64,000 nt of DNA from Squalus acanthias (taxonomy: Eukaryota), in NCBI GenBank assembly GCA_030390025.1, contig CM059432.1, positions 26,414,001 through 26,478,000 of the forward strand. The letters run 5' to 3'. Shown here piece by piece: positions 8,738-60,815 of this stretch; position 1 is the first letter of the stretch; the number at the start of each line of letters is the position of its first letter. The translations under genes and the position numbers were made by a program. The notes beneath the pieces were generated by a model. The model searched no databases. It was given only the letters and a program-made list of their open reading frames with translations, and had not been told where the DNA came from.

Positions 8738-9008
8738 GAAAACTATCTTGCATACATTCCATGAATTCGTCCTCCACACTAGTACTGCAAATTTGGATGC
8801 CCAGTGTATATGTAGATTAAAGTCCCCCATGATTACTGTATTATGCTTGTTACATGCGCCTCTAATTTCCTGATTTATACTCTGCCCTACATTACAACTA
8901 CTATTTGGGGGCCTATAAACAACTCCCACCAATGTTTTCTGTCCCTTGCTGTTTCTTAGCTCCACCCAAACTGATTCTACTTCTTCATTTTCGGAGCTAA
9001 GACTCTTT

Positions 9009-20035: not shown

Positions 20036-20104
20036 ATAGGGGATAGGTGCACTGAATAAGGAGGCTGGGACAGATATATATTTAAGAAGGGGGATAGAAC
20101 ATGT

Positions 20105-26700: not shown

Positions 26701-27245
26701 AAGAGGCTTCAAGGGGATATAGACAGGCTAAGTGAGTGGACAGGAACATGGCAAATGGAATATAATGTGGAGATATGTGAAGTTATCCACTTCGGTAGGA
26801 AAAATAGAAAAGGAGAGTATTTTTTAAATGGTGAGAGATTGGGAAATGTTGGTGTTCAGAGGGACCTGGGTGTCCTTGTACACAAATCATTGAAAGTTAA
26901 CATGCAGGTACAGCAAGCAATTAGGAAAGCAAATGGTATGTTGGCCTTTATTATGAGGGGATTTGAGTGTAAGAGTAAAGATGTCTTACTGCAATTATAT
27001 AGGGCCCTGGTGAGACCACACCTGGAGTATTGTGTACAGTTTTGGTCTCCTTACCTAAGGAAGGATACACTTGCCATAGAGGACGTGCAACAAAGGTTCA
27101 CCAGACTGGTTCCTGGGATGGAGGGATTGTCCTCTGAGGACAGATTGAGTAGACTAGACCTATATCCTCTGGAGTTTAGAAGAATGAGAGGCGATCTCAT
27201 TGAAACATATAAAATTCTTATAGGGCTTGACAGGGTAGATACGGG
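23793..27245 (+). mobile_element. CR1 ORF2 fragment interrupted by a solo LTR, 3'-truncated
   Basis: SDHNMIEF end of the endonuclease at about 23830; ORFs 25854-26486 and 26452-27245 carry RT motifs. Confidence 0.9.
23952..25656 (+). mobile_element. Solo LTR, 1705 bp (ERV or Gypsy type)
   Basis: Starts TGTA and ends TACA; GGTA on both sides (4-bp TSD); CR1 resumes in register; TATA-like 24560 and AATAAA 25447; homologous copy at 56697-59205. Confidence 0.9.
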
Positions 27246-27294
27246 GAAATGGAGGGAGGTGGGGGGGGGCGGTGGCGGGGGGTGGGGGGGAGGA

Positions 27295-28512: not shown

Positions 28513-29697
28513 CTCTCTCTTAGGCAGTCCCTCGGAACCGAGGATGACTTGCTTCCACATTAAATATGAGTTCTCATGTGACTGATGAGTCCAATGCGGG
28601 ACCTACAGTCTCTGTCACAGGTGGGGCAGATGGTGGTTGAAGGGGCGGGTGGGTGGGGTGCTTGGGTTGACGTGTGCTCCTTGCGCTTGGCTTCCGCTTG
28701 CTCCCGACGAAGAGACTCGAGGTGTTAGGCGCCTTCCCGGATGCTTCTCCTCCACTTTGTGCGGTCTTGGGCCATGGATTCCCAGGTGTCGGTGGGGATG
28801 TTGCACTTTTTCAAGGAGGCTTTGAGGGTGTCCTTGAAGCGTTTCCTCTGCCCACCTGGGGCTCTCTTGCCGTGCCGGAGCTCCGAGTAGAGCGCTTGTT
28901 TTGGGAGTCTCGTATCGGGCATGCAGACGATGTGACCCGTCCATCGGAGCTGATCGAGCGTGGTCAAAGCTTCGATGTTGGGGATGTTGGCCTGAGCGAG
29001 AACACTGACATTGGTGCGCCTATCCTGCCAATGGATTTGCAGGATCTTGTGGAGGCAGCGTTGGTGGTACCTCTCCAGTGCTTTGAGGTGCCTGCTGTAC
29101 ATGGTCCATGTCTCTGTGGCATACAGGAGGGCGGGTATCACTACTGCTCTGTAGACCATGAGCTTGGTGCCGGGTTTGAGGTCCTGGTCTTCAAACACTC
29201 TCTTCCTCAGGTGACCGAAGGCTGCACTGGCACACTGAAGGCGGTGTTAGACTTTGTCATCGACGTCTGCCCTTGTTGACAGTAGGCTCCCGAGGTATAG
29301 AAACATAGAAACATAGAAACATAGAAACATAGAAACATAGAATCTAGGAGCAGGAGTAGGCCATTCGGCCCGTCGAGCCTGCTCCGCCATTCAATATGAT
29401 CATGGCTGATCATCCAAATCCAGTACCCTGTCCCTGCTTTAATCCCCACAGTACACATATCCCACCCTACCCCCGTAACCCCACATATTTAATTCCCCCT
29501 AACATATCCCATCCTATCCCCATAACCCCACATATTTAATCCCCCCTAACACTAAGGGTCAATTTATCATAGCCAAATCAACCTAACCCACACATTTTTG
29601 GACTGTGGGAGGAAACCGGAGCACCCGGAGGAAACCCACGCAGACACGGGGAGAATAGAAAGTGGTCCGCCTTGTTGTGGATTTTGATAATCGGGGG
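28513..29697 (-). mobile_element. 5'-truncated RTE LINE flanked by a 166-bp duplication
   Basis: ORF 28725-29198 KLMVYRAVVIPALLYATETW...QLRWTGHIV; 29656-29697 continues the frame (PPIIKIH...DHF|YLGSLLS) across the nested SINE. Confidence 0.88.
29299..29655 (-). mobile_element. 5'-truncated HE1-type V-SINE nested in the RTE
   Basis: V-core tctccccgtgtctgcgtgggtttcctccgggtgctccggtttcctcccacagtcc; CR1-derived tail with (tttctatg)n. Confidence 0.88.
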
Positions 29698-32689
29698 GAT
29701 AGACTGGGGAGCTTCATTAAAAGCCATGCCGTTGAATAGGCAATGGCTAACATTTAAGGAACGAATGCATGAATTGCAACAGTTATACATTCCTTTCTGG
29801 CGCAAAAACACAAAAGGAAAAGCGGCCCAACCATGGCTAACAAAAGAAATTAAGGATAGTATTAGATCCAAAGAGGAGCCATATAAAAATAGCAAACCTG
29901 AGGATTGGGAGCAGTTTAGAATTCAGCAAAAAATGACCAAGAGATTGATTAAAAGGGGAAAAATAGAGTATGAGAGTAAACTTGCAAGGAACATAAAAGC
30001 GGACTGTAAAAGCTTCTACAAGTATGTAAAAAGAAAAAGATTAGTGAAGACAAATGTAGGTCCCTTACGGTCAGAAACGGGAGAATTTATAATGGGGAAC
30101 AAGGAAATGGCATGCAATTAAACAAATATTTTGGTTCTGTCTTCACGGTAGAGGACACAAATAACTTCCCAGAAATGCTAAGGAACCAAGGGTCTAGTGA
30201 GAAGGAGGAATTAAAGGAAATTAGTATTAGTAAAAATATAGTGCTAAAGAACTTAATGGGACTGCAAGCTGATAAATCCCCAGGGCCTGATAATCTGCAT
30301 CCCAGAGTACTAAAAGAGGTAGCCATGGAAATAGTGGATGCATTGGTTGTCATCTTCCAACAGTCTATAGCTTATGGAACAGTTCCTGCAGATTGGAGGG
30401 TGGCAAATGTAACCCCACTATTTAAAAAAGGAGGGAGAGAGAAAACAGGGAACTACAGACCGGTTAGCCTAACATCAGCAGTAGGGAAAATGCTAGAGTC
30501 TATTATAAAGGATGTGATAACAGGACACTTAGAAAATATCAATGGGATTAGACAAAGTCAACATGGATTTATGAAAGGGAAATCGTGTTTGACAAACCTA
30601 CTGGAGTTTTTTGAGGATGTAACTGATAGAATAGATAAGGGAGAACCAGTGGATGTGGTGTATTTGGATTTTCAGAAGGTCTTTGATAAAGTCCCACATA
30701 AGAGGTTAGTGTGCAAAATTAAAACACATGGGATTGGGGGTAATATACTGGCATGGATTGAAAATTGGTTAACAGACAGGAAACAGAGAGTAGGAATAAA
30801 TGGATCTTTTTCGGGGTGGCAGGCAGTGACTAGTGGGGTACCGCAGGGATCAGTGCTTGGGCCCCAGCTATTCACAATATATATCAATGATTTGGATGAG
30901 GGAACCAAATGTAATATTTCCAAGTTTGCTGACGACACGAAACTAGGTGGGATTGTGAGTTTTGAGGAGGATGCAAAGAGGCTTCAAGGTGATTTAGACA
31001 AGTTGAGTGAGTGGGCAAATACATGGCAGATGCAGTATAACGTGGATAAATGTGAAGTTATCCACTTCGGTAGGAAAAACAGAAAGGCAGAGTATTATTT
31101 AAATGGTGATAGATTGGGAAATGTTGATGTACAAAGGGACCTGGGTGTCCCTGTACACCAGTCACTGAAAGCAAACATGTAGGTGCAGCAAGCAGTTAGG
31201 AAGGCAAATGGAATGTTGGTCTTCATTGCAAGAGAATTTGAGTACAGGAGCAAGGATGTCTTACTGCAGTTGTACAGGGCCTTGGTGAAACCACACCTGG
31301 AATACTGTGTGCAGTTTTGGTCTCCTTACCTAAGAAAGGATATACTTGCCATAGAGAGAGTGCAGCGAATGTTCATCAGACTGATTCCTGGGCTGGCAGG
31401 ACTGTTGTATGAGGAGAGATTGAGTCGACTAGGCCTGTATTCACTAGAGTTTCGAAGAATGAGAGGGGATCTCATTGAAATGTATAAAATTCTGACAGGG
31501 CTAGACAGACTGGATGCAGGGAGGATGTTTCCCCTGGCTGGGGGGTCTAGAACGAGGGGTCACAGTCTCAGGATACGGGGTAGGACATTTAGGACTGAGA
31601 TGAGGTGAAATTTCTTCACTCAGAGGGTGGTGAACCTGTGGAATTCTCTACCACAGAAGGCTGTGGAGACCAAGTCACTGAATATATTTAAGAAGGAGAT
31701 AGATAGATTTCTAGACGCAAAAGGCATCAAGGGGTATGGGGAGAGAGCGGGAATATGGTATTGAGATAGAGGATCAGCCATGATCATATTGAATGGCGGA
31801 GCAGGCTCGAAGGGCCGAATGGCCTACTCCTGCTCCTATTTTTCTATGTTTCTATGTCACAGCATTTTCTTCTTTTAATTCAGAGATCCACAGTATTTTG
31901 CATTTGTTTTATCACAAACAATAACTTGGATTTTCAGAACTACAGAGGCATAGCAGTGGCTGGGTTAAAGTGAATGTACTATGACTCCATTCCAGCATTA
32001 CAGTATCACAGCCTTAAATAAGTTCAACCTAATGCAGCGTAACACCTTCTTTCAATGGGCAATGTTCGTCTTTGTAGTCTATGGAACGATTTCACTCTAA
32101 GCTATGCCAGTTGTGCAGCTATAAAACTTATCCAGAGGAATCAGAGCAAACAGGCTTCAGGCATTTTTTTGCCCAGTTTCTTCTGCACACAAATTTACAG
32201 TTGCAATCGGTCATTGCAGCTGGGAATCGATCTGGAGTTATTATCTCAGCATCACACATAGCCCAGGGGGAGATGGTGTGCTAAAGATGAAATTTTACCT
32301 TTGTATCACCTTTGTGAAGTGGTCTGATAAGCGTCAACACTATTTACTTGCAGGTGTAGGCCTGGATTTTTCTGCGCTCTACCGCCCAAAATCAGGCAGT
32401 GTAGGAGAGAAAATGGAGCAGGGCCCAGAGGAGGTGTAAATGGTTACAGCAGAACAGCAGAGGTATAGGAAGCATGGAAAATCTGGCAAAGACGAGAAGG
32501 CTCCCGTGGCTCAGGAATGTGGCGCAGAAAAGTGGGTACCTGCCCCAAAATAGGTTTCACCACAATCTCTACCCAGCTGTCTGACCTTTGGCCACCTCAC
32601 TGCATTTAAACTACAGCAGGGGGCAGATTAGGGAAAAGAAAACCACTCCATGCCCCCTCCTTCCCACTAAAGTGCTGCCAACGTCAGAT

Positions 32690-34153: not shown

Positions 34154-35515
34154 GCAGGAGGCCATACCCAGCACACAGGATCTACAGTCAGAGGATAAGC
34201 TTCCTCGACATGTTGGAACATCAGTGTATCAGGAGGCTAAAGTATCATGTCAGGTGGTGGCAGACATTTGCAGCCTGCTGGAACAAGACCTGCTGCCAAC
34301 TGGAGCTGGTGGCCACGCTTTACCAGTGGCTGTCAAAGTTACCACTGCCCTCAACTTCTTTGCCTCTGGATGCTCCCAGGGCTCTGCCGAAGACATTTGC
34401 AGGATCTCGCAGTCGGCGGAAGACAAAGGCTTGACAGATGACCGATGGCTTCTTTGCCAGGGCCGGTAATTATGTCAACTTTTCCTGCGATGAAGCCAGT
34501 CAGAAAGAGCGGGTGCTTGGGTTTGCGGCTCTGGCTGGCTTCCCACAGGTGCAGGGTGTCATCGACGGCACACTTTTGGCAATTAAGGCACCCATAGATC
34601 ACCCAGGAGTGTTCATCAACCGCAAAGGCTTCCACTCCATCAATGTGCAGCTGGTGTGCAACCACAAAAAGAAGTTTATGCAGGTGTGCGCAAGATTCCT
34701 GGGTAGCTGCCGCAGTCCACCCTCCCTGATCTCTTCGCACCTCGAAGCAGAGTTACCGGCTGGCTGCCTGGAGACAAAGGATACCCACTTAAAATGTGGC
34801 CAATGACACCTCTCAGAAACCTGAGGAATGAGGCCCAGGAGCAATACAATGAATGCCATAAGACCACCAGATGTGTAATCGAACAAGCCATCAGCATGCT
34901 GAAGGTGCGCTTCAGGTGCCTGGACAGATCTGGAAGCGCCCTTCAGTACACACCAGCCAGGGTCTCCAGAATGGTCGTGGTGTGCTTCGCTCTACACAAC
35001 ATTGCGCAGCAGCAAGGTATGGACCTGCAGGAGGAACAAGGCGAAGAGCACAGAACCTTTTCAGATGATTCCGAGGAGGAGGGGGAAGAGGATGGGGAAG
35101 AGGAGGGGAGGAGGAGGAGGTGGAAGGTGATGCGGGCAATGCACCACCTGCGGTGCACATTGCTGCCCAGAATACCCGGGATGTCCGCATTATTAAGAAC
35201 TTAGGTTCCACCAGCGCACCCATCTAACAACCCCATGCAAATGCCACATTTGCACCCCCACACCCCAAAGCCACTAACACAAAGCAGTCCTGCAAACAAC
35301 CAAGCCTCCCTTTCACAGCCCCCTATTGCTTGGCATCAATTCATGTCTTGCCATTCTTCATCACACAACTGAAAAGGCCACAGGCCAGCCAGCAACCAAG
35401 AATAGGCAAGACAGGAAAGTGGTGCAAAGGAATAACATCTATGTGGCTCAACTATAAAACAGAAACTTAACATTCTAACAATGTGTAACACACCCATGTG
35501 CTTTCCCTTGTGCAA

Positions 35516-37372
35516 CTATAAATCTTTACTCTTCCTTTTCCTAGCACTTCTACGTGTTGCAATCCCTGTGGCTTCAGCAGAGGGAGAGGCAGGCTGCTCA
35601 GAACCCTGCCCTGATGGCTGAGATGCTCTTCGCCGACCTCCTCTGAGTTTTAGAGCCCATGAGGGCCCCACCAAAGACTGCCCCACCTGCACCTGTACAG
35701 GGACAGACTCAGCCATTGGGAGATGAGGCAGCATGTAGGGCACTGACTGAGGAAGTGAGGGGGAAATGGGTAAGAAGTGGGAGCACTTTGAGCAGAGTCC
35801 CCACTTTTATGTCCCCTCAAACCATCATCCCTCTCAAGGCCCAGCCGCACTTCCCTGCTAGCAATGTGCTAGAGAACACTTTGCTGCAGATTAGTCGGGT
35901 GATGAATGGCCAAGGCTAGGGTATCATTCATCCTGTTCAAGGTGCCATTCATAGAGTGCAAGCATTGGTGAAGGCCTAAATGGACTCTTTTAATTGCCGC
36001 ATTTGATGCTCCATGCAGTTGGCCACTCTTTCCATGGAAGAAGACATCATCGCAAAGGCCTGCCACTTATGCTTGAGACAGACTCATTCAATCTCTCTGC
36101 AATCATGCACAGTGCAGCTGGAACACCTACCAGTACATCGCACATTCTCTGCTGCTGCTCAAGAAGTATCCAATTCGTTGACGGCCCCCTAGGTACAGCA
36201 TCTGCGTCCATCTGAGCATAGTTTGCAGAGTCCTGCGCACTCCAACACGGACTCTCCACTGCTATCCCTGGCTCCACCATCTGCCCTTGCTCACTTGTGA
36301 AGTGCGAGTCCCCACGTGAAAATCCAACTATTTCTCTAAGTTCTCCCACCGAAGTACCAGAATCTGAGTTGGTGCATGGTCTGCATAAGTCGTGTGATGG
36401 TGCACCCTCAGAGTGAGTGAGCTTCTCTGAGAAGTTGTTGTTGAGGTGGGTGACCTCGACCACCTCCTGAGGGATGCGTGAAGGCCCTGTAGAAGATAAA
36501 AGACATGAATGAGTACTGTGAAGGTAAGCATGCTTGAAGTTATCATTACGCACATGATCATATTCCAGTGGCTGTTGATATCAAGTCAGTGTGGCTTTGT
36601 GTTGTATGCCATGTGGCTGGCTGATATTTAATTCTGTCACCAGGTTGCTGGCTGGACCCCATCTCCGACGGCCAGGCACGCCAACCCTCCGCTAATCTCC
36701 AGCGCCTCCTTCTCTGCAGTTATCAATTGAGAGATGGCTGGAGGGCCACCTCTGGTTCTCTGCCCCTCCCTGGTGTTCTCTGCTCTCTTCTCCTGCAAGG
36801 ACAGAAAGAAGAGACCCGTGAGTGAGAGTAATGGCACGTGTTCACCCGATGGATGGACAGCATTTATTGAGGGTGACTGAGGTATAGGCATAACATTGCA
36901 TAAGGATGAGTGTGATGCACTGGGAGCGGTGTCAGTGGTGGATGGGTAGATGGGTATGTGAGTAAGTGCATAGACAGAGAAGGATGGGTGCACCTGCAAA
37001 GTAAGTTGGTGTGAGGAGTGATGTGCTACAGTAGGCTTGAGAAGGCAGAGTGAGGGGGTTAGGAAGATACACACATCAGGATGTAGTTAAATGGGGCACT
37101 GTACTCATCTTTCCTGCCCTGATTAGGTCATTAAACTGCTTTCTGCATTGAATTCAGGAGTTTGGCACCACACTCCTGCTGCTGAACTCCTGGGCAACCT
37201 CCAACCCCACCTTCTTTGTGTCGCCTGCAGGCTTCTTCCTCCTGTCACGAGGGAAGAGTATCGCCCTCGGGGCCCTTACAGCCCCCAACAGCACATCCAG
37301 GGAGGCGTCGCTGAAGCGGGTCGCAGCCTTTGCCTGTCTCGACTCCATACCAACAGGTCTGTGTCTCGCCAT
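35516..37372 (-). pseudogene. Harbinger Myb/SANT DNA-binding gene, 3 exons (37372-37109, 36792-36641, 36486-35516), decayed
   Basis: RFSDASLDVLLGAVRA...LEVAQEFSS...NS*IQCRKQFNDLIR; acceptors ccttgcag and cttctacag; first donor reads atgagt; C-terminal RRSARKRK. Confidence 0.8.
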
Positions 37373-37645
37373 GCCAACTCCCAACTCCTTCAACTTAGAT
37401 GTTTGGAGTGTTCCATTAAATACTGGAGTTGAAATCGCGTCATGCGCGTCGTCATCATGCCCGCTGACGCTAATCAGAAGCAAAACCCGGAAGTAAATTG
37501 ATATTGAGATGGCTCAGTTAAAAGCCACTGACAGACACGCTGCACTTACTTAACATAGAAACATATAAGATAGGAGCAGGAGTAGGCCATTCGGCCCCTC
37601 GAGCCTGCTCCGCCATTCAATGAGATCATGGCTGATCATCCAAAC

Positions 37646-40502
37646 TCAGTACCCTGTACCTGCCTTCTCGCCATATCCCTTGATACCTTTAGCTTTAAGA
37701 AATATATCTAACTCATTCTTGAATATATTTAATGACTTGGCCTCAACTACCTTCTGTGGTAGAGAATTCCACAGGTTCACCACTCTCTGGGTGAAGAAAT
37801 TCTTCCTCATTTCTGTCCTAAATGGCTTACCCCTTATCCTTAGATTATGACCCCTGGTTCTGGACTCTCCGACCATCGGGAACATTCTTCCTGCATCTAG
37901 TTTATCCAGACCTGTCAGAATTTTATATGTTTCGATGAGATCCCCTCTCATTCTTCTATACTCCAGCGAGTATAAGCCCAATCGACCCAATCTCTCCTCA
38001 TATGTCATTCCTGCCATCCCAGGTATCAGCCTTGTGAATCTTCGCTGAACTCCTTCCATGGCAAGAACATCCTTCCTCAGATAAGGCGACCAAAACTGCA
38101 CACAATACTCAAGGTGTGGTCTCACCAAGGCCCTGTACAACTGCAGCAGGACATCCCTGTTCCTATACTCAAACCCTTTCGCTATGAAGGCCAACATACC
38201 ATTTGCCTTCTTCACCGCCTGCTGCACCTGCATGCTTACCTTCAGCGACTGGTGCACAAGGACACCCAGGTCTCGTTGCACTTCCCCTTCTCCCAATCTA
38301 TTGCCATTCAGATAATAGTCTGCCTTTCTGTTTTTGACACCAAAGTGGATAACCTCGCATTTATCCACATTATATTGCATCTGCCACGCTTCTGCCCACT
38401 CACCCAACCTGTCCAAATCATCCTGGAGTTTCTCAGTATCCTCCTCGCAGCGCACACGCCCACCCAGCTTTGTGTCATCTGCAAACTTGGAGATATTACA
38501 TTTAGTTCCCTTATCTAGATCATTAATGTATATTGTGAATAGCTGGGGTCCAAGGACCGAACCCTGCGGTACTCCACTAGTCACTGCCTGCCACTCGGAA
38601 AAAGACCCATTAATTCCTACTCTCTGCTTTCTGTCCGCCAACCAGTTCTCTATCCAAGTCAATACCTTGCCCCCAATCCCATGTGCCTTAACTTTACACG
38701 CTAATCTCTTATGCAGGACCTTATCGAAAGCCTTTTGAAAGTCCAAATGCACCACATTTACTGGTTCTCCCTTATCTATTTTCCCAGTTACATCCTCAAA
38801 AAATTCCAGTGGATTAGTCAAGCACGATTTACCTTTTGTAAATCCATGTTGACTTTGTCCGATCCTGTCACTGTTTTTCAAGTGCTCAGCTATTACATCC
38901 TTTATAATGGACTCTAGCATTTTCCCCACTACCGATGTCAGGCTTACTGTAATTCCCCGCTTTCTCTCTACCACCCTTTTTGAATAGTGGGGTAACATTA
39001 GCTACCCTCCAATCCATGGGTACAGTTCCAGATTCCATTGAATGTTGGAAGATGATCAGCAATGCATCTACTATTTCTAGGGCTACTTCCTTAAGTACCC
39101 TAGGATGTAGATTATCAGGCCCTGGGGATTTATCGGCCTTCAATCCCGTCAATTTCCCTAACACCATTTCCCTGCAAATACTGATTTCTTTCAGTTCCTC
39201 CCTTTCATCAGACCCTATATTCTCCAACATCTCTGGGAGGTTATTTGTGTCCTCCTTTGTGAAGACAGAACCAAAATATGCATGTAATTGGTCTGCCATT
39301 TCTTTGTTCCCCGTTATAACTTCCCCCACTTCTGACTGCAAGGGACCGACACTTGATTTCGCTAATCTTTTTCTCTTCACATATCTATAAAAGCTCTTAC
39401 AGTCAGTTTTTATGTTCCCTGCAAGCTTACTTTCATATTCTATTTTCTCCTTCTTAATTAATCCCTTTGTCCTCCTTTGTTGAATCCTAAACTGCTCCTA
39501 ATCCTCAGGGTTACCGTTTTTTCTGGCAAATTTATATGCCCTCTCCTTGAATCTTATGCGATCCCTAATTTCCCTTATTAGCTACGGTTGAGTCACCCTT
39601 TTTGTTTTATTCTTATGCCACACTGGGATGAACAAATTCTGTAGTTCATCCATGCAGTCTTTGAATGTTTGCCATTGCCTATCCACCGTCAACCCTTTGA
39701 GTGACATTCCCCAATCAATCCTACCCAATTCGTGCCTCATACCATCGTAGTTTCCTTTATTTAAATTCAGGACCCTAGTCTCTGATTCAACTACTTCACT
39801 CTCCATCCTAATGAAGAATTCTATCATATTATGATCACTCTGACCCAAGGGGCCTCGTACAACAAGATTGCTAATTAATCCTTTCTCATTACATAATACC
39901 CAGTCTAAGATGGCCTGATCTCTGGTTGGTTCCTCGACATATGGTTCCAGAAAACCATGCCGTAAACATTCTAGGAATTCCTCCTCCACAGTATTTTTAC
40001 TAATTTGGTTAGCCCAATCTATATGTAAATTAAAGTCACCCATGATGACTGCTGTGTCCTTACTGCATGCTTCTCTAATTTCCCTTTTAATGCCGTCCCC
40101 AACCTCCGTATTACTGTTTGGAGGTCTATATACCACTCCCACTAACGTTTTCTGCCCCTTGTTATTTCTCAGTTCTACCCATACAGATTCCGCATCATCA
40201 GAGCTAATATCCTTCCTTTCAATTGTGTTAATTCCCTCTTTAACCAGCAATGCTACCCCACCTCCCTTTCTTTTTTGCCTATCTTTCCTAAATATTGAAT
40301 ACCCCTGGATGCTGAGTTCTCAGCCTTGGCCACCCTGGAGCCATGTTTCTGTAATCCCAATCAAATCATATTCATTTACCTCTATTTGCACAGCTAATTC
40401 ATCCACCTTGTTCCGAATGCTCCTTGCATTAAGACATAAAGCCTTCAGGCTTGTTTTTTTAACGCTCTCAGAACTATATGAATTATTATTTACTGTGACC
40501 AT
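37646..40502 (-). pseudogene. CR1 ORF2 (APE + RT) with a few stops and frameshifts
   Basis: ORFs 40320-40502 (CLNARSI, GITETWL), 39582-40250, 38886-39380 and 37646-38998 (450 aa, FADD). Confidence 0.93.
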
Positions 40503-44490: not shown

Positions 44491-45284
44491 TTAAATAAAT
44501 CTGTTGGACTATAACCTGGTGTTGTGCGACTTCTCATTTTTGTCCACCCCAGTCCAACGCCGGCATCTCCACATCTTAATCAACTCAGCCATTGTGGGAG
44601 CCTCCAGGAATTCAGATATAACACACAATATTAAATGCCCTGTCTGCAATATGCTCCTCATAATAGCATTCTATTATCACAGCCTCTCAGATGATATACA
44701 CTGGATCGAAGGGATAATTCTTTGATCAAACACTCCTAGCAACGAACAGCACTTGCAGAGAGCTGGTAAGGAAATCAAGGGGCTTCCAGGCCCTGATATT
44801 CCATCTATTGATTTAAATGGATAGAAAATAAGGGCTGCAAGCCCTTAATTTCCTAATTAGCAGTCCCTGTGAACACTGTTCCTCATCCGGAACATCCAAC
44901 TGGGGAATCATCTCTATAGTTCCTTGATTAATGGGTGATAGGGCCTTCTACTATCTCCACAGTGTCTCTAACCCAGGGCAGGCTTTGTTCAGATGGCCCA
45001 TTTTAATATTCTCCATAACCCTTGTCCCCTTCATCTTCACTTTTAGATGGAGTACCAGTTGATACAAACAAAAGCATTTTCATTAAAACACAAACAAGGC
45101 AGATAATTCAGATATACGCAGCTTCGGTACAAGTGAAATTCATCTATTGATGGTGGGCAACATAATTGGCAATTTACCAGTGTTAGGATAAATAGTCCTA
45201 AAAATCCAGCAATGCTGGCAGTCATATTGGGATACTTCCCTCCAGCACTGACCCTGCTCAAATTTGTGGGTTGAATGGGAATTT

Positions 45285-46778
45285 TCTTTTTATCTGTTTT
45301 TTTACAGGATGTGGACGTCGCTGACAAGGCCAGCATTTATTGCCCATCCCTAATTGCCCTTGAGAAGGTGGTGGTGAGTTGCCTTCTTGAACTGCTACAG
45401 TCTGTGTGGTGAAGGTACTCCCATTGTGCTGTTAGGTAGGGAGTTCCAGGATTTTGACCCAGCGACGATGAAGGATCGGCGATATACTTCTAAGTCAGGA
45501 TGGTTTGTGACTTGGAGGGGAACTTGGAGGTGGTGGTGTTCCCATGCGCCTGCTGCCCTCGTCCTTCTAGGTGGAAGAGGTCGCGGGTTTGGGAGGTGCT
45601 GCTGAAGAAACCTTGGCCAGTTGCTGCAGTGCATCTTGTAGATGGTACACACTGCAGCCACAGTATGCCGGTGGTGGAAGGAGTGAATATTTAAGGTGGT
45701 AGATGGGGTGCCAATCAAGCGGGCTGCTTTGTCCTGTATGGTGTTGAGCTTCTTGAGTGTTGTTGGAGCTGCACTCATCCAGGCAAGTGGAGAGTATTCC
45801 ATCACACTCCTTACTTGTGCCTTGTAGATAGTAGAAAGGCTTTTGGGAGTCAGGAGGTGAGACACCTAGCATCTGACCTGCTCTTGTTGCCACAGTATTT
45901 ATGTGGCTGGTCCAGTTAAGTTTCTGGTCAATGGTGACCCCCAGGATGTTGATGGTGGGAGTTTCTGCGATCGTAATACCATTGAATGTCAAGGGGCGGT
46001 GGTTAGACTCGCGCTTGTTGGAGATAGTCATTGCCTGGCACTTCTGTGGCGCGAATGTTACCTGCCACTTATCAACCCAAGCCTGAACGTCGTCCAGGTC
46101 TTGTTGCATGCGGGCATGGACTGCTTCATTATCTGAGGAGTTGTGAATGGCACTGAACACTGTGCAGTCATCAGCGAACATCCCCATTTCTGACCTTATG
46201 TTGGAGGGAAGATCATTGATGAAGCAGCTAAAGATGGTTAGGCCAAGGACACTGCCCTGAGAAACTCCTGCAGCGATGTCCTGGGGCTGTGATGATTGAC
46301 CTTCAATCACCACAACCATCTTCCTTTGTGATAGGTATGACTCCAGCCAGTGAAGAGTTTTCCCCCCGATTCCCATTGACTTCAGTTTTACTGGGGCTCC
46401 TTCATGCCACACTCGGTCAAACGCTGCCTTGATGTCAAGGGCAGTCACTCTCACCTCACCTCTGGAATTGAGCTCTTTTGTCCATGTTTGGACCAAGGCT
46501 GGAATGAGGTCGGGAGCAGAATGGTCTTGGCGGAACCCAAACTGGGCAACAGTGAGCAGGTTATTGGTGAGTAAGTGCCACTTGATAGCACTGTCGATGA
46601 CACCTTCCATCACTTTGCTGATGATTGAGAGTAGACTGATGGGGTGGTAATTGGCCAGATTGGATTTGTCCTGCTTTTTGTGGACAGGACATACCTGGGC
46701 AGTTTTCCACATTGTCGGATAGATGCCAGTGTTGTAGCTGTACTGGAACAGCTTGGCTAGAGGCGCAGCTAGTTCTGT
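45285..46778 (-). mobile_element. 5'-truncated LINE, family B, with most of the RT
   Basis: ORF 45567-46841 NYHPISLLS, QFGFR, LDIKAAFDRVWH, QGSVLG, FADD; ORF 45395-45865; family B tail. Confidence 0.92.
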
Positions 46779-48319
46779 AATTCTAGGGAATGCGTCTAAT
46801 TGCATGGGACAAGGTAGGCGCAAATTCCACTGTGGGCACATCTCTGGTGTTCATCTGTCCCATGTAGCCGGAAAATCTGGGGCCTGCTCGCCACTGGGGG
46901 TTTTCCCTATTCCCCCTCCCAGACGAGTTCTCCTTTGATCCTATGCGTAAGGAGGCCCATCAAGATTTTTTTCAAAATTTTACCTATTTTGCGAATCCAG
47001 GTTGCTTGCTTCCCCTGAACCTCCCAGTGGGGCCCACCTCTGCCTATTGGAGATTGGCATGCCTCATCTCATTAGGAGTACTTGACTCCAGTACACGGGG
47101 TCCTGAATGAGTTAGGGAAGTAAGAGCTCCTGGCTCCGCCTCCGTCTTGCAAATGTTGGAAGCAGTGGGGATCTGATGCAAACGGGGCCCTGCCATTTTC
47201 CAGTGGTTTATGCCGGTCTGCTGCCAGAGATTTAGCGGGAGTCCAACGCAACCTTTGTGGATCTATTGGCCAATGTCATTACTTAAAAGGTGACAGCGCA
47301 ATGTAACCTCACCCTCTCTACCTCTAACATGAACCTTTGTCGTGGTTCCCCCTACTCTCTTTTCTTTATTTTCTATGCTTTAAGAATTTCAAGGATTTCT
47401 AACAACACTGTGTAGGCAGCAGTTCAAGGTGCAATATCACATCAAACACAGGCGGAGAGAGGCTTAGAGAAAAATTAAACAAAGATTTAATCTGGATGGG
47501 TTTCAATTCAAAATTGTTATTTTCTACAAAGGCTCAAAAGACTAAATCCATCATGGAATTTGTTTTACTTCATGCCAGTGCAGGTCAGCATCTTGGTGCC
47601 CGTTCTGCTCAGTGTTAATTTATGGCTGTTCTATTGTCCCTGTATTGAACACATTTTTCAAGTAATGCATGAAGGTGAAGTGGGCCAGATAACATTTCTC
47701 TCAGGTCCTCTTTACTCACGGGGTTCTTTGTCGTCTTGTCTTTCGTTCAGAAATATATTTTCCTTTTGCGACCCTTATCTTGAAGGCAATGACTTATGTT
47801 GGGTTATAGTTCCACAATGGAGAGCAGCCCTCTCATACTTCACCCTAGTGCCCTTTCTTCACCTGTGTGATAGTCAGTGAATGTTGGCACACTATTAGAC
47901 CATGAAACACGCACACCCTTCAAAAGTATTTGATTATAGAATCATAAAAGTTACAGCGCAGAAACAGCAATATCATTACTTGTGCTAATATTAGTTCCTC
48001 AACTGGAGCTATCAGCTCTAATCCCATTTCCCCCTCAGTTGGTACTTAGGCTTTCATTAGCCTTTGTGCCACTTATAATTATTTATTTATTTTCCTCTAA
48101 ACTCTCTTTACTGGCCCTGGAGGGTTTGCCACCTGAAATCCTGTGTTTGGAGAAAAAGGGGAGCAGTGGAATGATGCCAGGCAGGTCAGGCTGCACCCCC
48201 GCCTCACTGTGGCAGATGTTGCTGGTGGAAGGCCCTTTTTTCAATGCACCAGAGGACCTCCTAGTGGTATCACCATGAGATGTGAATGCCTGTCTAACCC
48301 TTATGCTAGAGGGTTCATC

Positions 48320-48553
48320 AGAATCAGAGAATAGCACAGCACAGAAGGAGGCCGTTTGTCTCATTGAATCTGCGCCGGCTCTTTCAAAGAGTTAGTCCCA
48401 CTTCCACTCTCCTTCCCCATATCCCTGAATATTTTCTCCTTCAAGTATTTATCTAATTCCCTTTTAAAGGCTGCTACTGAATCTGTATCCAACACCCTAT
48501 CAGGCAGTGCATTCCAAATCCTAACCACTCGTTGCGTAAAATAGTTTTTCCTC
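48320..48553 (-). mobile_element. CR1 3' fragment, continues at 49872-49927
   Basis: FTQRVVRIWNALP...FKRELDKYL; split by the family B element. Confidence 0.8.
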
Positions 48554-48559
48554 TTTAAA

Positions 48560-49871
48560 AAAAAAATCATTTATGGGATGTGGGCGTCGCTGGCAAGGCC
48601 AGCATTTATTGCCCATCCCCAATTGCCCTTGAGAAGGTGGTGGTGAGCCGCATTCTTGAACCACTGCAGTCAAGGTACTCCCACAGTGCTGTTAGGTAGG
48701 GAGTTCCAGGATTTTGATCCAGCGACGATATACTTCAGGATGGTGTGTGACTTGGAGGGGGTGGTGTTCCCATGCACCTGCTGCTCCTGTCTCTCTAGGT
48801 GGAAGAGGTCGCGGGTTTGGGAGGTGCTGCCGAAGAAACCATGACGAGTTGCTGCAGTGCATCTTGTAGATGGTACACACTGCAACCACGGTGGAGGGAA
48901 TGACTGTTTAAGATGGTGGATGGGGTGCCAATCAAGCAGGCTGCTTTGTCCTGGATGGTGTTGAGCTTCTTGAGTGTTGTTGGAGTTGCACTCATCCAGG
49001 CAAGTGGAGAGTATTCCATCACACTCCTGACTTGTGCCTTGCAGATGGTGGAAAGGCTTTGGGGAGTCAGGAGGTGAGACACTCGCCACAGAATACCTAG
49101 CCTCTGTTGCCACGGTGTTTACGTGGCTGGTCAATGGTGACCCCCAGGATGTTGATGTGGGGGATTCGCCGATGGTAATGCCATCGAATGTCAAGGGGAG
49201 GTGGTTAGACTCTCGCTTGTTGGAGATAGTCACCTGGCACTTCTGTGACACGAATGTTACCTGCCACTTATCAGCCCAAGCCTGAACATCGTCCAGGTCT
49301 TTTTGCATGCGGGCATGGACTGCTTCATTATCTGAGGAGTTGTGAATGGCGCTGAACACTGTGCAGTCATCAGTGAACATCCCCATTTCTGACCTTATGT
49401 TGGAGGGAAGGTCATTGATGACACAGCTAAAGATGGTTAGGCCTAGGACACTGCCCTCAGCAATGTCCTGGGACAGCTCTCCCAATTTTGGCACAAGACC
49501 CCAGATGTTGGTGAGGAGGACTTTGCAGGGTCGACTGGGCTGGGTGTCCGTAGCTGGTGCCGACGTCAATGCCGGGTGGTCCGTCCGGTTTCATTCTTAT
49601 TATTGCGTTTTGTAGTGGTTTGTTACAACTGAGTGGTTTGCTAGGCTGTTTCAGAGGGCAGTTAAGAGTCAATCACATTGCTGTGGCTCTGGAGTCACAT
49701 ATAGGCCAGACCAGTAATGACAGCAGATTTCCTTCTAGCTTTTTATTCCAGATTTATTTAATTAACTGAATTTAAATTCCCCACCTGGGATTTGAACTCA
49801 TATCTCTGGATCATTAGTCCAGGCTCGCTGGATTACTAGCCCAGTGACATTACCACTACCCTACCATTCCC
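48560..49871 (-). mobile_element. Internally deleted family B LINE with intact tRNA-like 5' head
   Basis: A-box-like 49853-49863, B box GAGTTCAAATCCC 49787-49799, SINE core, KVLLTNIWGLVPKLGEL endonuclease start, jump to the RT at about 49468, family B tail. Confidence 0.85.
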
Positions 49872-49928
49872 TTCATGTCACCTCTGATTATTTTGCCAAT
49901 CACCTTAAAGCTGTGTCCTCTGGTTATC

Positions 49929-50759
49929 CCCTGGCGCTAATTATCGGCACTGACGGGAAACTTCACTTTTACCGCCCCGGGAGGTGAGTGGAGCGCTAAA
50001 GCAGGCGCTGCACACCTCTCTTAAGGCGCAAAGGCCGAGCAGTGAGGCGCTAACTCGGAGCGCTGGCGAAGCTCATGTAATGTCAGTCAGCAATGGAACA
50101 CACACACAATGGCACGGGCCAGTTCTTAAAGGGGAAGGTTAATCTTGCTTTCCATCCACATCCTGTTCATTGCTGCCTTGAATCTCGGCCTGGAGAGACT
50201 TGCACATCAAATGTGCTGGAAAGAACAATGGAGAGTACCAGGCAAAGAGCTCAGAGTGCAGCTCCCACAGTCTCTGCTAAATCGATACAAGGAATGGCAA
50301 ATTAAAATGAACCTGCAAAGTGCTGCTCAGTACCCAAAACTCCTTCACACAACATTGAATCTCTCCAGAAGTCTCTCCCTCTCTCTCTCAGAATGCGTAG
50401 TTCAAAAATGCCACCAACAATAAAAGACAGGAAGAGGCCCCCTTTAAATAGCGCCCCCCCCAGCCCCACAGCAATTGATAGTGTTCCAGTCTTCTGGTCG
50501 TTGGAAGCGCCAGGCGGTAAGGCAGGGGGCGCCACTCAATTTCCGCTACGGGGCGCCACAAGGGCGTTGCACCATGGAATGACGTCACAATCTGCGCGCG
50601 CAGGTGGTCGCAGCGGTAAGTTTTAGCGCCGCCGCACAATCTCAAGTTAAGTTCTCGAGCGGCGCAAACATCGCTGCGCCCGGGCGTTAGCGGCTTTGCG
50701 CCCCATTAGCGCCCTCTTAAGGCGCTAACGGGAGGCGCAACCAAGTGAATTTTTACCCC
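49929..50759. mobile_element. Harbinger-like MITE, left TIR deleted
   Basis: Colinear with 57054-57942; right TIR gaatttttacccc. Confidence 0.85.
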
Positions 50760-52149: not shown

Positions 52150-54012
52150 TGGACTGCTACAAAGAGTGCCACACTGAGACAGAGGGCTGCACTCAGGTTC
52201 TCCAATGACTCCCTCCATATGCTTGTGGAGGGAGTGAGAGCACGCAGGGAGGTCCTCTTCCCTTCTAATGGGCGGAAGAGACCTCCCCAGGAGACAAAAG
52301 CAGCCTGGCTCCAAATAGCCGAGGAGGTGAACAGCAGGGATGTGGTCAGGAGGACCTGAATGCAGTGCCGCAAACATTTCAATTATCTCATTAGATCAGG
52401 AAAGGTGAGTGCAAAGCCACACTCAACTTCATCCTGCTGTGCCTCTCATCACATCCCCATCACTTTGCCTTCCCAACCCTGCTCCTGCACTTCCTTACTC
52501 ACACCAACATACCTTGCACACCCACCCATCCCTCTCTCTCTCCATCTATATTATCACATCCCCATCTGACTAGCCACCCCTCACACTCACCCTCATCCTA
52601 ATGCAATCATACCAACTAACAACACACAAGGAGGTCACTTGGCATTGGTACCCCACTCCATTATAGACTCCCTCTAAAGATCTAACCCATCCATTGCTTA
52701 CACTCATTGCATCACTCTCACTCAACCTTCTTTCCCTCTTGCAGGAAAAGAAAGGGAGAGAATCGGCAGTGACCCTCCATCATTTGCAAATCTTGCAACA
52801 GCAGAGGAGGCTGCCTCAGAAGTATCTGGGGTCACCGAGCACCTGGAGGTGAGAGACAGAGAGAGGGGGACACTTCAGCAACCTGGTGACAGAATTACAT
52901 ATCATACAGCTACATGGCATACACCAGTCACTCATATGGGGACTGATGTCAGCAGCCAGGGAATGGTCACCATGCGCATAATGGTATCTGTACCCATTCG
53001 TCATACGACATATCTAACTCATCTCTTTACTCTCCTACAGCTCCATCAAGAGCCCACCCCTACTGTTCAGGACGAAGAGGAAGATGACTCCTCAGAGGAG
53101 CCTCCAGCCTCTGAGGGCGCACCGTCACCAGACACAAGCGCACCCAGTACCAGAGCAGATATGCACACCTCAGTGGGTGCCATGCGAGATAGAGTATTGT
53201 TGTCACCTAGTGTCTCACAACTCACAAGTGAGCAAGAGCAGATGGTGGAGACTGGGATAGCAGTGGAGACTCCTCGCTGGAGGGCGCAGGATGCTCCCAG
53301 CTCTGCTCCGCTGCATGCAGACGCTGAGCTTCGGGGGCCATCCAGAAAGAGGGCGTTCCTGGAGGTGGAACAAGAAGTGCAGGGGGCTCTGACAGGTTTT
53401 GCAAGAGCGCTGTCTGCAAATGTCCAGAGAATGGAGGAGTCCATCTCCAACATGAGCACCACCGTGTCGCAGGCGATGGTGACTGTAGGCTCCTCCATGG
53501 ATAGGATGGCCACCTACATGGAGCAGCTGATGCACCACTCGCAGGAGCACATAGTATCTGTGGAGAATAGATGGCAGAGGCTCATAGACCTCTTCTCTAG
53601 GAGGGATGTCAGCATAGACGTGGGTCCTCGTGGCCCAACTGATGTGCAGCAAGGTGCTGTCCAGCTCCTTGCTAGCAGGTAAGTGCAGGTGACCCATGAG
53701 AGGGATGATGGTGAGAGGGGACATGGAAGTGGGGGTTCCTCTCAAAGCGCTCACACTTCTCCCCTATTGCCACCCCCTCAGTCAGAGTTCCAGATGCCTC
53801 CTTGGACAGCGATGGCCAAGTCTGCCCCTGCACAGTCGCAGGAGGAGCAGACTTTGGCGGGGCCACCAGAGGCTCCAAAACCCAGATGACATCTGCGAAG
53901 AGTGTCTAAGCAGGCACAGCAGGGAAGTGAGCAGGCTGCCTCTACCTCTGCTGAAGCCATAGGGGTAGCAACTCGTAGAAGTACGCGTAAGAGAAAGATG
54001 GCAAATAAGTAG
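52150..54012 (+). pseudogene. Harbinger Myb/SANT gene, 3 exons (~52150-52404, 52745-52885, 53041-54012)
   Basis: RFSNDSLHMLVEGVRARREVLFP...AWLQIAEEVNS...RT*MQCRKHFNYL; GTGAGT donor at 52405; acceptors cttgcag and cctacag; C-terminal RRSTRKRK. Confidence 0.85.
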
Positions 54013-54305
54013 ATTCCCAACGGTAGCCACATAGGTGTTTTATTCAATGTTTAGGTAACATTTCCGTTAATGTGCAGTCAAACATAAAAATCTTTATTTT
54101 CACCACTTTCCGGTCTTGGTCAAATTTGTGTGCACCTTTGGGAGTGGCTTAGTGAGTTGCAGTGAATGGTGAGATATAACGGTACCTCCAGCATTGATGG
54201 TCAGTATGAATGGCTTGGGCATTGTAGGGATGCTTTATGGTGTTGGTGTGGGGTGGTGCCAACCTTGTGCAGCATGTGGCAGCGATATAGGTGTACTGCG
54301 TAAAG

Positions 54306-55460
54306 TTAAGTAAATCTGGCCATGATGGGGCCATCCCTGGCCTCCTGGGCAGCAATGTGCTCGGGTGCTGGTGGGATCTGGTCCGCCGGTTCCTCCAGCT
54401 CCTCCTCCTCCTCCTCGTCTTCCAGTTGATGCTCCTCCTCCTCTGAAGAGACTGTGCGCTCAGTGCCTTGCTCCTCATGCAGCGCTAATCCTCGCTGCTG
54501 CGCTATGTTGTGCAGGGCACAGCAGACCACGATGATTCTGGATACCCTGTCTGCAGGGTACTTAAGGGCTCCTCCAGATCTGTCAAGGCATCTGAAGCAC
54601 ATTTTGAGCATGCCTATTGTCTGCTCTATGACACATCTGGTGGAAATGTAGCTTTCATTATATCTCTCCTCGGCCTCAGTACTTGGCCTCCTCAAGGGTG
54701 TCATGGGCCATGTCGTCAGTGGATAGCCCTTGTCTCTAAGCAGCCAGCCGGAAAGTGAGTTTGGAGGAGTGAAGAGCTGAGGGAGGGTGGACTGGCACAG
54801 GACGAAAGAGTCATGACAGCTGCCAGGGAAGTTGACACACACATGCCTGATGATCTTCCTATGGTTGTAGACCAGCTGCACATTGAGGGAATGGAAGCCC
54901 TTGCGGTTGACAAAGACTCCTGGGTTATAATAGGGTGACCTGATGGCCACATGTGTGCAGTCGATGACGTCCTGCACCTGTGGGAAGCCAGCCAGAGTGG
55001 CAAAGCAGAGCGCCCACTCAGTAACACTGGCTTCATCTGTGGCAAAGTTGATATAATTGGCTGACTTGTCAAAGAGGGCATCAGTGACCTGTGTGATGCA
55101 TCTGTGGGCAGCTGACTACAAGATGCCACAAATGTCTGCTGCAGATACCTGGAAGGAGCCTGAGTCTAAGAAGTTGAGGGCGCTGGTGACTTTGACAGCC
55201 AATGGTAAGGCATGTCTACCCGCTCCTCTGGGCTGCAGGTCTTCCTCCAGCAATGTGTATATATCTGCGACGACCTGGCGCAATAGCCTGAGCCTCCTTT
55301 GGCACTGCTGCTCAGTCATGTTGAGGAAGCTCATCCTCTGCCTGTATACCCTGTGTTGGGGATGCGCTGATGCCCTCTGTCCTGTGCAGCATCAGGTGGT
55401 TGAGGAGAAGGTTGGTGGTGTTGTTGTTGGTGTGCCTGGTGATGCTGGTGTTGGGGCTCA
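54306..55460 (-). pseudogene. Harbinger DDE transposase (HARBI1-like)
   Basis: ORFs 55116-55334 and 54306-54977: [49 protein letters not shown]. Confidence 0.92.
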
Positions 55461-56696: not shown

Positions 56697-59205
56697 TGTA
56701 AGGGGGACGTGTCTCAGACAGTGCTGGTGTGAGGTTAGGCCTTCGTTGCCTAATACTATTGCTTGCTCTGGTCTCCAGCCAGCCTTTTTGCAATAAGCAC
56801 CTGTGAGTGGTTCGACCCACTCGCCCTTACGGTTCTAACACTGGACTTAGGTGCAGGGAGCAGTAATGCAGTGAAAAACTCAAATAGACCCGGTTGAATA
56901 GTACGAAATGGAAATCTTTATTGCATGGCGTCTAAAATCATGAAATACATGTCATAGGCGCAAATCAACGATAGTACAAGTATACGTACATTCATAAAGC
57001 TTGGTCTGTGGAAATGGAGAACACACGGCACATCGTAGAAAGGGGAACACATTGGGGGAAAAATTCAGTCGCGCCCCATTTGGGGCGCAAATATCGTCCG
57101 GGCGCAAAAATTAGCGCCTGGCGCAAATTATCGCCACTGACTGGAAACTTCACTTTTAACGCCCCTGGAGGTGATTGCAGCGCTATATCAGGCGCTTCAC
57201 ACCTGTCTGAAGGCGCAAAGGCCGAGGAGCGAGACGTTACCTCAGAGCGCTGGCGAAGTTCAGGTAATGTCAGCAATGGAACACACACACAATGGCACGG
57301 GCCAGTTCTTAAAGGGGATGGTTAATCTTGCTTTCAATCCACATCCTGCTCATTGCAGCCTTGAATCTCGGCCTGGAGAGAACTGCACATCAAATGTGCT
57401 GGAAAGAACAATGGAGAGTACCAGGCCAAGAGCTCAGAGTGCAGCCCCCACAGTCTCTGCTAAATCGATACAAGGAATGGCAAATCAAAATGAACCTGCA
57501 AAGTGCTGCTCAGTACCCAAAACTCCTTCACACAGCGTTGAATCTCTCCAGAAGTCTCTCCCTCTCTCTCTCAGAATGCGTAGTTCAAAAATGGCACCAA
57601 CAATAAAAGGCAGGAAGCGGTCACCTTTAAATAGCACTCCCCCTTTCCCTTCATGACTGCAGAACGCTCCCCTCAACCTGTCGTTGCTAGCGTCAGGCGG
57701 TAAGGCAGGGGGCGCCACTCAATATCCGCTCCGGGGCGATACCAGGGCGTTGCGCACTCGAGTGACGTCATGATCTGCCGGCGCAGGAGATCGTGGCAGT
57801 AGTGTTTAGCACCGCCGCAAAATGTCTAGTTAATTTCGCGATCGGCGCAAACTTCGCTGCGCCCGGGCGCTAGCTGCTTTGCGCCCCATTAGCGCCCTCT
57901 TAAGGCGCTAACGGGAGGCGCAACCAACTGAATTTTTCCCCCATTATATCTTAACCTTAAAAACCACCCTCCCTTAACAATACCTACACTACGTCTAGAT
58001 TTGTAGGATCGTAAAACATGCTCACCACTCGTGTTACTTCGGAGATTTTTAAAGTGGGGCACTCAGCTCGTTTCGCTGCAGCGCCTGACTGTCACGTGTT
58101 TGGAAGGGTCTCTGCACCCCACTTGTTTACTTTCGCTGCTGCGAAAAGCAGGCCAGACTCCCTGTTGTCATGAAGAACTCGACGGACCTCGGACACAGTT
58201 CAAAGAAGAGTCTTCCTGTGCTCGATACAGGTTGTCGGGAGAACTCAAAGAAAAGTTCTTTATTTATATTTTCGGGCGCGGTCGGGGTTTACTGACCGTG
58301 GCGGCACGTGGATTCTTCTCCTCTTCTTCTCGTCTCATCTTGTCTCTTCGGGCCTCCGGGTCCAGACACCATTTACCGACCCTCGGGATGGTGTACCCTG
58401 TTACTTGCCCTTGTCGGGGCGGCTTGTTCCGATTGAGCTCCACCCAACACTTGAATAAACCGACCAGTACGGCTAAGAGTCAAGAGTCAACAAAGTCCAG
58501 AGAGAAAATCAAAAGGCTGCAAGTCAAGCGAGTTCATGAAGAGGCAAGCGAATAAGAGAGCGATGGACATTTGTTCTCTATAGTTATAGTGATGTGTCCT
58601 CCTTATCTCCCGCTCGAATCTTAATGTTTGTCCTTTGTGTAATATTGGCGCACAAAACTCCCAGCATGGGGCGGTTGTCTTCTTTAACGGGTTTCGGTAG
58701 CACCTGAAACTGGCCAACTATCCGTTAATGTTTTCCCCATTGTTGACCCAGCCAGGATGTGTATGAATCGTCTCCCTGACTGGTTTTGGGGGCCCCCGAA
58801 TACTGACTTAATCACCCGTCAATGTCTCTCTCATTGTAGAGCCGGGGGGGTATTTGTGTATTGATGTGTCTGGATGGGCCTTCGATTGCCCAGTACAATG
58901 ATCCTTTCTGTGCATAGGAAAATGATTCCAGCACTTATATCTTTGCTATTGTTCCAAATGCAAACAGGTTGCATCCTGTCTTTATCAGTGTTTACCGAGT
59001 ATGATCCAATCTTATACTAAATGTATATTCGACGCCATTTTGTCTGCCCACTGTGTTTCTGGAAGCTTCTGCCACGATGCTCGGTGGCCATTTTACAGGC
59101 TTCTGTGTCCTTTATTATCAGGACAGCATTTCGTTTAATAAAACTGATCAAACGAATCTGCTTCTCTTGTGTTATTTTGAATCGCGATAATTGCGAAACT
59201 TTACA
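56697..59205 (-). mobile_element. Solo LTR, same family as 23952-25656, with nested MITE
   Basis: TGTA...TACA ends; AGGA TSD on both sides; reverse-complement homology along its length. Confidence 0.9.
57054..57942. mobile_element. Harbinger-like MITE nested in the solo LTR
   Basis: TIRs gggggaaaaattcagt / actgaatttttccccc; ATT TSD. Confidence 0.92.
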
Positions 59206-59984: not shown

Positions 59985-60815
59985 GAATGTGGAGTCAGGG
60001 GACTAATAGCAGAATGGATAGCTAGCTGGCTTCAAGACAGAAAGCAGAGAGTAGGAGTAAAGGGTGGCAGAAGGTGGGAAGTGGTGTTCCACAAGGATCA
60101 GTGCTGGGAGCACTGTTGTTCACAATTTCCATTCACAATTTAGACTTTGGAATCAAAAACACCATTTCTAAATTTGCGGATGACACCAAATTGAGGGGGA
60201 TAGTCAATACTGAGGAGGACTGCAACAAATTACAGAAGGACATTAATAAACTTGCAGAATGTGCATATAATTGGCAAATTAATTTTAACACAGATAAATG
60301 TGAGGTATTATATTTTGGTAGGAAGAATAGGGAGGTCACTTATTACTTGGAGGGTGGGAGTCTGGATGGGGTAGAGGAGCAAAGGGATCTCAAAGTACAA
60401 ATACACAAATCACTAAAAGTAGCAACACAGGTTAACAAGGTCATAAAAAAAGCACTAAGGTTTATTTCTAGAGGGATAGAATTGAAAAGTAGTGAAGTTA
60501 TGCTAAACTTATATTGAACCTTGGTTAGACCACACTTGGAGTACTGCATTAAATTCTGGTCACCATATTATAAAAAGGATATAGAGGCACTGGAGAGGGT
60601 GCAGAGAAGATTTACAAGGATGATACCACAAATGCGAGGGTATACATATCAGGAAAGGATGAACAGGCTGGGTTTCTTTTCTCTTGAAAAGAGAAGGCTG
60701 AGGGGTGATCTAATAGAGGTCTTTAAAATTCTGAAAGGTTTTGACAGAGTGGATACAAAGAGAGTGTTCCACTTGTGGGGAAAAGCATAACTAGAGGCCA
60801 TCAATATAAGATATA
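59985..60815 (+). mobile_element. CR1 RT fragment, same subfamily as 20105-20985
   Basis: ORFs 60074-60517 and 60521-60790. Confidence 0.88.

Follow-up and report, generated by a model that had tools for sequence, protein, structure and literature searches.

The minus-strand element at positions 48560-49871 of the window (the whole 64,000-nt stretch of Squalus acanthias DNA that was analysed) is a decayed copy, shortened by internal deletion, of a 3.3-kb Zenon LINE of elasmobranchs. In its full-length relatives a tRNA-like head is followed by a core, a linker, an endonuclease–reverse transcriptase (RT) frame that runs from the first endonuclease motif, and a tail. As judged from these sequence features, the tRNA head likely drives Pol III through an element free of T runs, and the AUG-less endonuclease–RT frame is presumably reached by a non-standard route. 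Textbooks assign LINEs to Pol II, as capped and coding transcripts, and SINEs to Pol III, as non-coding ones; the family described here is abundant, and its Pol III hallmarks span the whole coding element. Because these hallmarks extend along a coding element that has no start codon, the family could be used to ask directly whether RNA made by Pol III in nature can serve a mobile element as its mRNA.

Anatomy of the window copy

Read on the minus strand, the head of the element starts at 49871. Together with an A-rich spacer, this tRNA-derived head forms the 5' end (49736-49871), as indicated by a start common to 20 genomic copies, relaxed ARAGORN calls and a sub-threshold Rfam tRNA match. The A-box-like and B-box motifs reported in the initial annotation were found at 49863-49853, here one base away from the family form of the A box, and at 49799-49788; the Rfam alignment places between them an anticodon-arm-like hairpin with a Thr-like AGT loop (49828-49844). 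Next comes a conserved core (49611-49735), common to a partner SINE elsewhere in the window and 90% identical to 14251-14379. The initial annotation had put the stretch shared with this SINE (14142-14543) at about 200 bp, and alignment recovers ~220 bp in two blocks, one of 95 bp (83%) and one of 129 bp (90%). The core has lost ~70 bp at its 5' side when set against a natural full-length copy. The linker (49525-49610), which contains an out-of-frame AUG (49594-49592) and a 6-bp minisatellite, is 13 nt short, with an AUG-to-K distance of 70 nt versus a mode of 83 among copies.

The first 18 codons of an APE endonuclease follow at 49469-49524. The motif likened initially to the first APE signature, KVLLTNIWGLVPKLGEL, does start at 49524 on the minus strand after the linker, and other copies carry the full endonuclease domain. 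From here the frame passes into the RT across a CCCA microhomology at 49472-49469. This jump, also described initially, holds as a microhomology but not as a family trait: it is a private deletion of the window copy, which has lost ~1.8 kb relative to a natural full-length copy, and 39 other matches to the junction query end at query positions 150-152, where the deletion begins. The second half of the RT and the C-terminal region (48619-49468, minus strand) are decayed by frameshifts and small deletions; they were recognised by translation and by 84% identity to a full-length copy, PF00078 being found in other copies. The element closes with a 3' tail common to the SINE and a T10/A remnant of the tail (48553-48618). 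Runs of at least four T in or beside the A tail occur in the window copy (48553-48567) and in 6 of 29 tails, and could represent either a built-in Pol III terminator that not every copying event includes or a product of tail decay.

Four long pieces of this family, here family B, had been counted in the window. All four are present, but the head is found only at 48560-49871, the other three being 5'-truncated: a copy running from RT to tail at 45282-46780 on the minus strand (92% to positions 1814-3285 of the full-length copy), an older one at 21309-22363, also minus (79% to positions 2240-3304), and a third at 7747-8742 on the plus strand (92% to positions 2325-3301). RT copies of the canonical CR1 type, belonging to two or more subfamilies (family A; 4515-7740, 25797-27247, 29697-31857, 37552-39941, 20084-20982 and 60023-60768) served as controls. 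Two further repeat pairs were noted in the window. A GC-rich pair of 836 bp lies at 49924-50759 and 57111-57942 with 88% identity, its first member a short way upstream of the head, and parts of it recur at 9008-9286. A 2.5-kb inverted pair (34163-36650 and 52876-55364; 68% identity), in which no LINE RT motif was found, is probably another old element.

The headed unit and its family

A junction query covering core, linker and endonuclease was searched against the window's own 3.7-Gb genome. It returned 2081 candidates, and all 40 scored matches span core, linker and endonuclease. We fetched 40 loci, 20 of them junction matches and 20 taken from 40 matches to a full-length query, picked for their 5' reach. 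Among these selected loci, 18 (the reference copy counted in) align unbroken from position 64 or earlier to position 3250 or later, and head, core and APE–RT frame thus recur as one unit of ~3.3 kb, as had been proposed. The 20 headed copies share their start base, nine being identical over 12 nt and the rest one to three letters off. Comparison of 21 upstream flanks gave two pairwise matches, neither of them a shared sequence adjoining both heads; an ORF1 hidden upstream of the head was rejected, the flanks being unrelated. A chance chimera, in which a SINE inserted beside a truncated LINE at this one locus, could be imagined in a genome so dense in both SINE and LINE repeats. It retains next to no probability, however, given that the junction recurs in 40 of 40 matches and, by eye, in the published consensuses of four other elasmobranchs, that full-length units lie at unrelated sites, and that the order of parts is kept in five species.

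The unit comprises 3302 columns, made up of a 440-nt leader, a single majority frame of 936 codons and a 50-nt tail followed by an A tail; the tails of copies are A-rich at their ends, as for the Zenon poly(A) tail. In copies other than that of the window, the frame carries PF03372 and PF14529 (APE endonuclease) and PF00078 (RT). The initial claim that there is no ORF1 holds for the full-length copies: only 440 nt separate +1 from the first endonuclease codon, and the longest frame upstream of the endonuclease is ~48 codons. Divergence from the column majority is 2.5-4.6% among the 24 near-full copies, and no intact copy was seen among those fetched, the longest pure frame being 815 codons. 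No clear target-site duplication was found, although AT-rich matches of 5-6 nt were present in 6 of 12 copies. Depth in the genomes of close relatives is ~tenfold higher at the tail than at the linker, as expected from 5' truncation.

The family is a known one. According to the available text of PMC13343379, Zenon elements of sharks and rays are always without an ORF1 and carry a poly(A) tail. Its Table S2 contains a SquAca_Zenon-1 consensus of 3314 nt (3302 in our unit), whose first 400 nt are by eye near-identical to the 5' end of our family, and a text search located three core motifs in that consensus. Inspected by eye, the CarCar, HypSab, RhiTyp, ScyCan and SquAca Zenon-1 consensuses all open with head, core and linker, the core being near-identical across the five and the B box canonical in three. 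All seven elasmobranch Zenon consensuses inspected in this way (SquAca-1, -2 and -3, white shark, catshark, whale shark and stingray) are headed; by eye, the coelacanth and two hagfish consensuses show no head in their first 400 nt, and T runs are present in them. In a quick tree of 43 RTs, none of them a named Zenon RT, family B falls outside the clade of 98 support that holds the CR1 of this genome, and lies beside metagenome RTs; a metagenome scan yielded distant relatives only.

Both the family as such and its lack of an ORF1 have therefore been published (PMC13343379). That lack had at first been taken as a departure from the CR1-group norm; it is real but normal for the Zenon clade, as far as the available text of that paper describes it, and is thus no surprise. 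Nor does the loss of ORF1 support Pol III, because Zenons are without ORF1 even where they have no head. Searchable papers appear to make no remark on the tRNA head, on the loss of T runs or on the absence of a start codon: in the available text of PMC13343379 the terms tRNA, promoter, Pol III and translation occur 0 times, its preprint has none of tRNA, promoter or polymerase III, and no description of a tRNA-headed Zenon was found in the literature searched, which did not extend to Repbase, Dfam and most subscription journals.

Several other groups of loci came up in these searches. In three (L102, L105 and L113; G000 C53, C3445 and C29) a headed Zenon breaks off at ~2636 and continues in frame into the endonuclease region of a CR1, with frames of 688-971 codons, and L107 is similar. 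A chimeric Zenon–CR1 subfamily was considered and rejected: one breakpoint is common to the three, and because their satellite and CR1 flanks are common as well, they look like a single insertion amplified by duplication, and were left out of the T-run counts. Five near-identical 5'-truncated copies within 120 kb (L010, L020 and L028-L030; G000 C12, 90.56-90.69 Mb) probably reflect local duplication. A young Tx1/L1-like LINE family (L101, L103, L104, L115-L118 and further matches) has open frames of up to 1306 codons, and the spacing of some of its copies, ~7.2 kb apart on one contig (C4, C11), suggests tandem arrays. Four shark proteins (P0002, P0075, P0085 and P0097) carry pieces of the Zenon frame at 75-87% identity; the LINE-bearing proteins are annotated as aldo-keto reductase-like, SVEP1-like, LRRC32-like and others, and the pieces are probably gene-model errors or exonised copies.

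Transcription and translation of the unit

ARAGORN at default settings finds no tRNA in the head of the window copy. At an 80% threshold it calls a tRNA in 15 of 20 heads, compared with two calls each among 20 flanks and among 100 shuffles and one among 20 ORF pieces, while the Rfam tRNA model aligns to the head at 17.9 and 15.5 bits (gathering score 29). The exact A box, TRGCNNAGTGG, is present in 13 of the 20 heads and the exact B box, GTTCRAATC, in 11. By these measures the head is tRNA-like beyond chance and is a degenerate tRNA, with an insertion of 22-25 nt between the A and B boxes that counts against the Pol III reading. Its parent tRNA is uncertain because the ARAGORN types are split between Thr, Ile and others. 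Two head-less relatives, L121 and L122, gave one ARAGORN call each at 80% and none at 90%; they are without a B box and have no BLAST match to the head.

A run of four or more T terminates transcription by Pol III. In the 24 near-full copies, trimmed ahead of the A tail, the sense strand has no T4 in 16, one in seven and two in a single copy. No T4 site is present in more than 2 of the 24, A4 sites are common to up to 24, and the longest majority T run is 3. A control Tx1-like LINE of the same genome and T content has 2.1-2.7 T runs per kb (7 loci), control CR1 has 2.1-7.2 per kb, and the head-less L121 and L122 have 20 and 36 T runs in 3 kb. The observed/expected ratio of TT is likewise 0.59-0.78 in five pieces of the family, compared with 1.05-1.19 in six controls. 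A third-base codon null gave p values of 0.004-0.08 for T runs in five pieces; dinucleotide-preserving shuffles (p 0.09-0.54) were not significant and within-gene codon shuffles (p 0.03-0.31) mostly not, because such nulls absorb the TT deficit. All T-run tests come close to one observation, since the copies represent one lineage. The leader carries AATAAA signals at ~122 and ~133 in three of four copies checked (one signal in the fourth) and 8-10 AUGs in four copies, an arrangement ill matched both to a plain Pol II unit and to scanning.

The first in-frame Met of the enzyme frame is codon 250 counted from the first endonuclease motif, past the endonuclease domain, whereas L121 and L122 have a Met just ahead of that motif. 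With no AUG before codon 250, the enzyme needs a non-AUG start within ~38 codons or a -1 shift, and we favour the non-AUG start. An in-frame TAA lies three codons ahead of a GCT at the end of the core. This GCT position is in the enzyme frame in 40 of 50 copies, and by eye the stretch from GCT to linker keeps that frame in the published consensuses of four other species despite a change in length; the published SquAca_Zenon-1 is 1 nt shorter there than the modal copy. Folding gave no structural support for an IRES in the core, with a candidate helix probability of at most 0.11 in six copies and a core folding z-score of -0.54. A dicistrovirus-type IGR IRES pseudoknot ending just before the non-AUG start was also considered and found no folding support, pseudoknots being invisible to the nested folding used. 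Frame selection could not be read from within-genome variants, as the signal is swamped by CpG decay. Non-AUG internal entry has been raised as a possibility for LINE ORF2 in the available text of PMC3894237.

Initiation might instead take place at the AUG of the linker, followed by a -1 shift around the first codons of the endonuclease, with no non-AUG start at all. In 49 of 58 copies (AUG-to-K distance 2 mod 3), as well as in the ray consensus, this AUG keeps the same out-of-frame position, and it opens 48 codons; of ~11 linker changes between dogfish and ray, judged by eye, five are silent in the AUG frame and three in the enzyme frame, a difference that is not significant. However, AUA replaces this codon in 13 of 58 copies, as it does in ~99% of the depth in one related species, whose other linker changes are, by eye, silent in the enzyme frame at three places and in the AUG frame at one, and no canonical slippery heptamer is present. 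We therefore regard initiation at the linker AUG as the less probable route.

Because a tRNA head, an absence of T runs and the want of a normal start codon coincide, Pol III copying with unusual translation is likely, and we consider it probable that Pol III transcribes the whole element. Alternatively, the head could be the true 5' end and yet serve as a Pol II promoter or operate alongside one, or host read-through could copy the element, the lack of T runs then being a matter of lineage composition. RNA made by Pol III carries no cap and is difficult to translate, which would favour such an origin, as do the dinucleotide-preserving nulls that fall short of significance. LINEs are also regarded as transcribed by Pol II (Kojima 2018, PMC5786205, available text). 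Against this stand a start fixed to the base with which the tRNA-like head begins, boxes kept by eye across the published shark and ray consensuses, the AATAAA signals and upstream AUGs of the leader, and the T runs that other LINEs of the genome keep at equal T content, so that we find a Pol II or read-through origin unlikely. A further alternative accepts the Pol III purge of T runs and denies the coding role: the long unit would be a non-autonomous Pol III SINE with LINE cargo, moved in trans by a head-less, AUG-bearing Zenon, its frame not being translated from the headed RNA. The missing AUG start, the lack of an intact copy among those seen and the dispensable linker AUG would agree with this. 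Yet the majority frame stays open over 936 codons and keeps its endonuclease and RT motifs intact, proteins of other elasmobranchs match it at 75-87%, the published elasmobranch consensuses all carry the head, and no head-less full-length form was among the loci fetched, which makes a non-autonomous unit quite improbable. Transcription of a coding unit by Pol III accordingly remains our preferred reading; in a human L1 assay, Pol III transcripts needed no ORF1p (PMC2666806, available text).

Under Pol III transcription, a Zenon in the shark–ray ancestor would have gained a tRNA-derived head, after which selection for Pol III read-through would have removed U runs. Ribosomes would enter the uncapped RNA internally, at a non-AUG codon immediately past the core, or, as an alternative, would reach the frame by a -1 frameshift from the linker AUG. 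In its fullest form, this would be an autonomous coding retrotransposon, transcribed by Pol III since before sharks and rays split, with an uncapped 3.3-kb RNA and non-AUG internal entry on a SINE-like core; we put this whole chain forward tentatively, as a possibility that has clearly less than even prospects.

Partner SINEs and known systems

The partner SINE (14142-14543, minus strand) joins element positions 1-345, less a deleted portion of the head, to the final ~100 nt of the LINE, and its tail is this Zenon's own. At 30 loci retrieved by a search with the junction of the window SINE, the first 329-346 nt of the LINE are joined to tail positions 3140-3208; the constancy of the breakpoint near 344 in these loci is partly an effect of the query, and other core-to-tail joints, at about positions 254-333, occur in related genomes. 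A few diagnostic columns distinguish SINE heads from LINE heads. Only the partner SINE is short and non-coding, the long unit being 3.3 kb and coding. These features fit an origin of the partner SINEs as repeated internal deletions of the headed LINE: the LINE protein would reverse-transcribe any RNA bearing the LINE tail, and deletions that keep head and tail could thereby have become SINEs. A captured SINE is a plausible source of the LINE head itself, and a gain before sharks and rays split would fit the absence of the head in the outgroup Zenon consensuses.

Where head and core are matched in a shark genome, the sequence may thus be the 5' end of a LINE instead of a SINE, a point of relevance to annotation. 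The origin and retention of conserved SINE bodies are an open question in the available text of Kojima 2018 (PMC5786205), and the headed Zenon bears on both their source and their upkeep. If internal entry does take place on the core, the conserved SINE body would be a ribosome-entry element derived from a LINE, which would give it an origin as well as a function. The body of the SINE shows no likeness by eye to two UCON3 rows, and may resemble the CORE/Ceph part of OegopSINE over a short stretch of ~20 nt.

Parts of this arrangement are familiar from elsewhere. Bov-B is a LINE with SINE-derived ends, and R2 has an uncapped RNA with a non-AUG start; both belong to clades other than Zenon. Canonical CR1, represented in the window by family A, shares with family B its place in the CR1 group and its APE and RT, but occupies a separate RT branch in the quick tree and has T runs; it also encodes, or descends from elements with, an esterase ORF1 (PMC13343379, available text), which family B lacks. 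SacSINE1 and the Deu-SINEs of cartilaginous fishes (PMC5499810, available text) include a tRNA-headed SINE of sharks, like the partner SINE. Identity with it was rejected, as the SacSINE1 head in the portion of the Kojima 2018 supplement consulted is a different sequence, and the SacSINE1 tail is of the L2-2_CM type whereas that of the partner SINE is a Zenon tail. RTE-1_DAn and elements related to it (Kojima 2018, PMC5786205) are LINEs with a tRNA-like sequence, but belong to the RTE clade; RTE-1_DAn does not occur in the available supplement text. A parallel in design is offered by the bipartite SINEs of the same study, which combine the 5' and 3' ends of a LINE, just as the partner SINE combines the first ~345 nt with the last 100-160 nt. 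As described in the available text, however, bipartite forms derive only from RTE, Ingi, Vingi and R2, whereas the donor here is a Zenon of the CR1 group, and their head was added after the deletion, whereas here it is already carried by the coding LINE.
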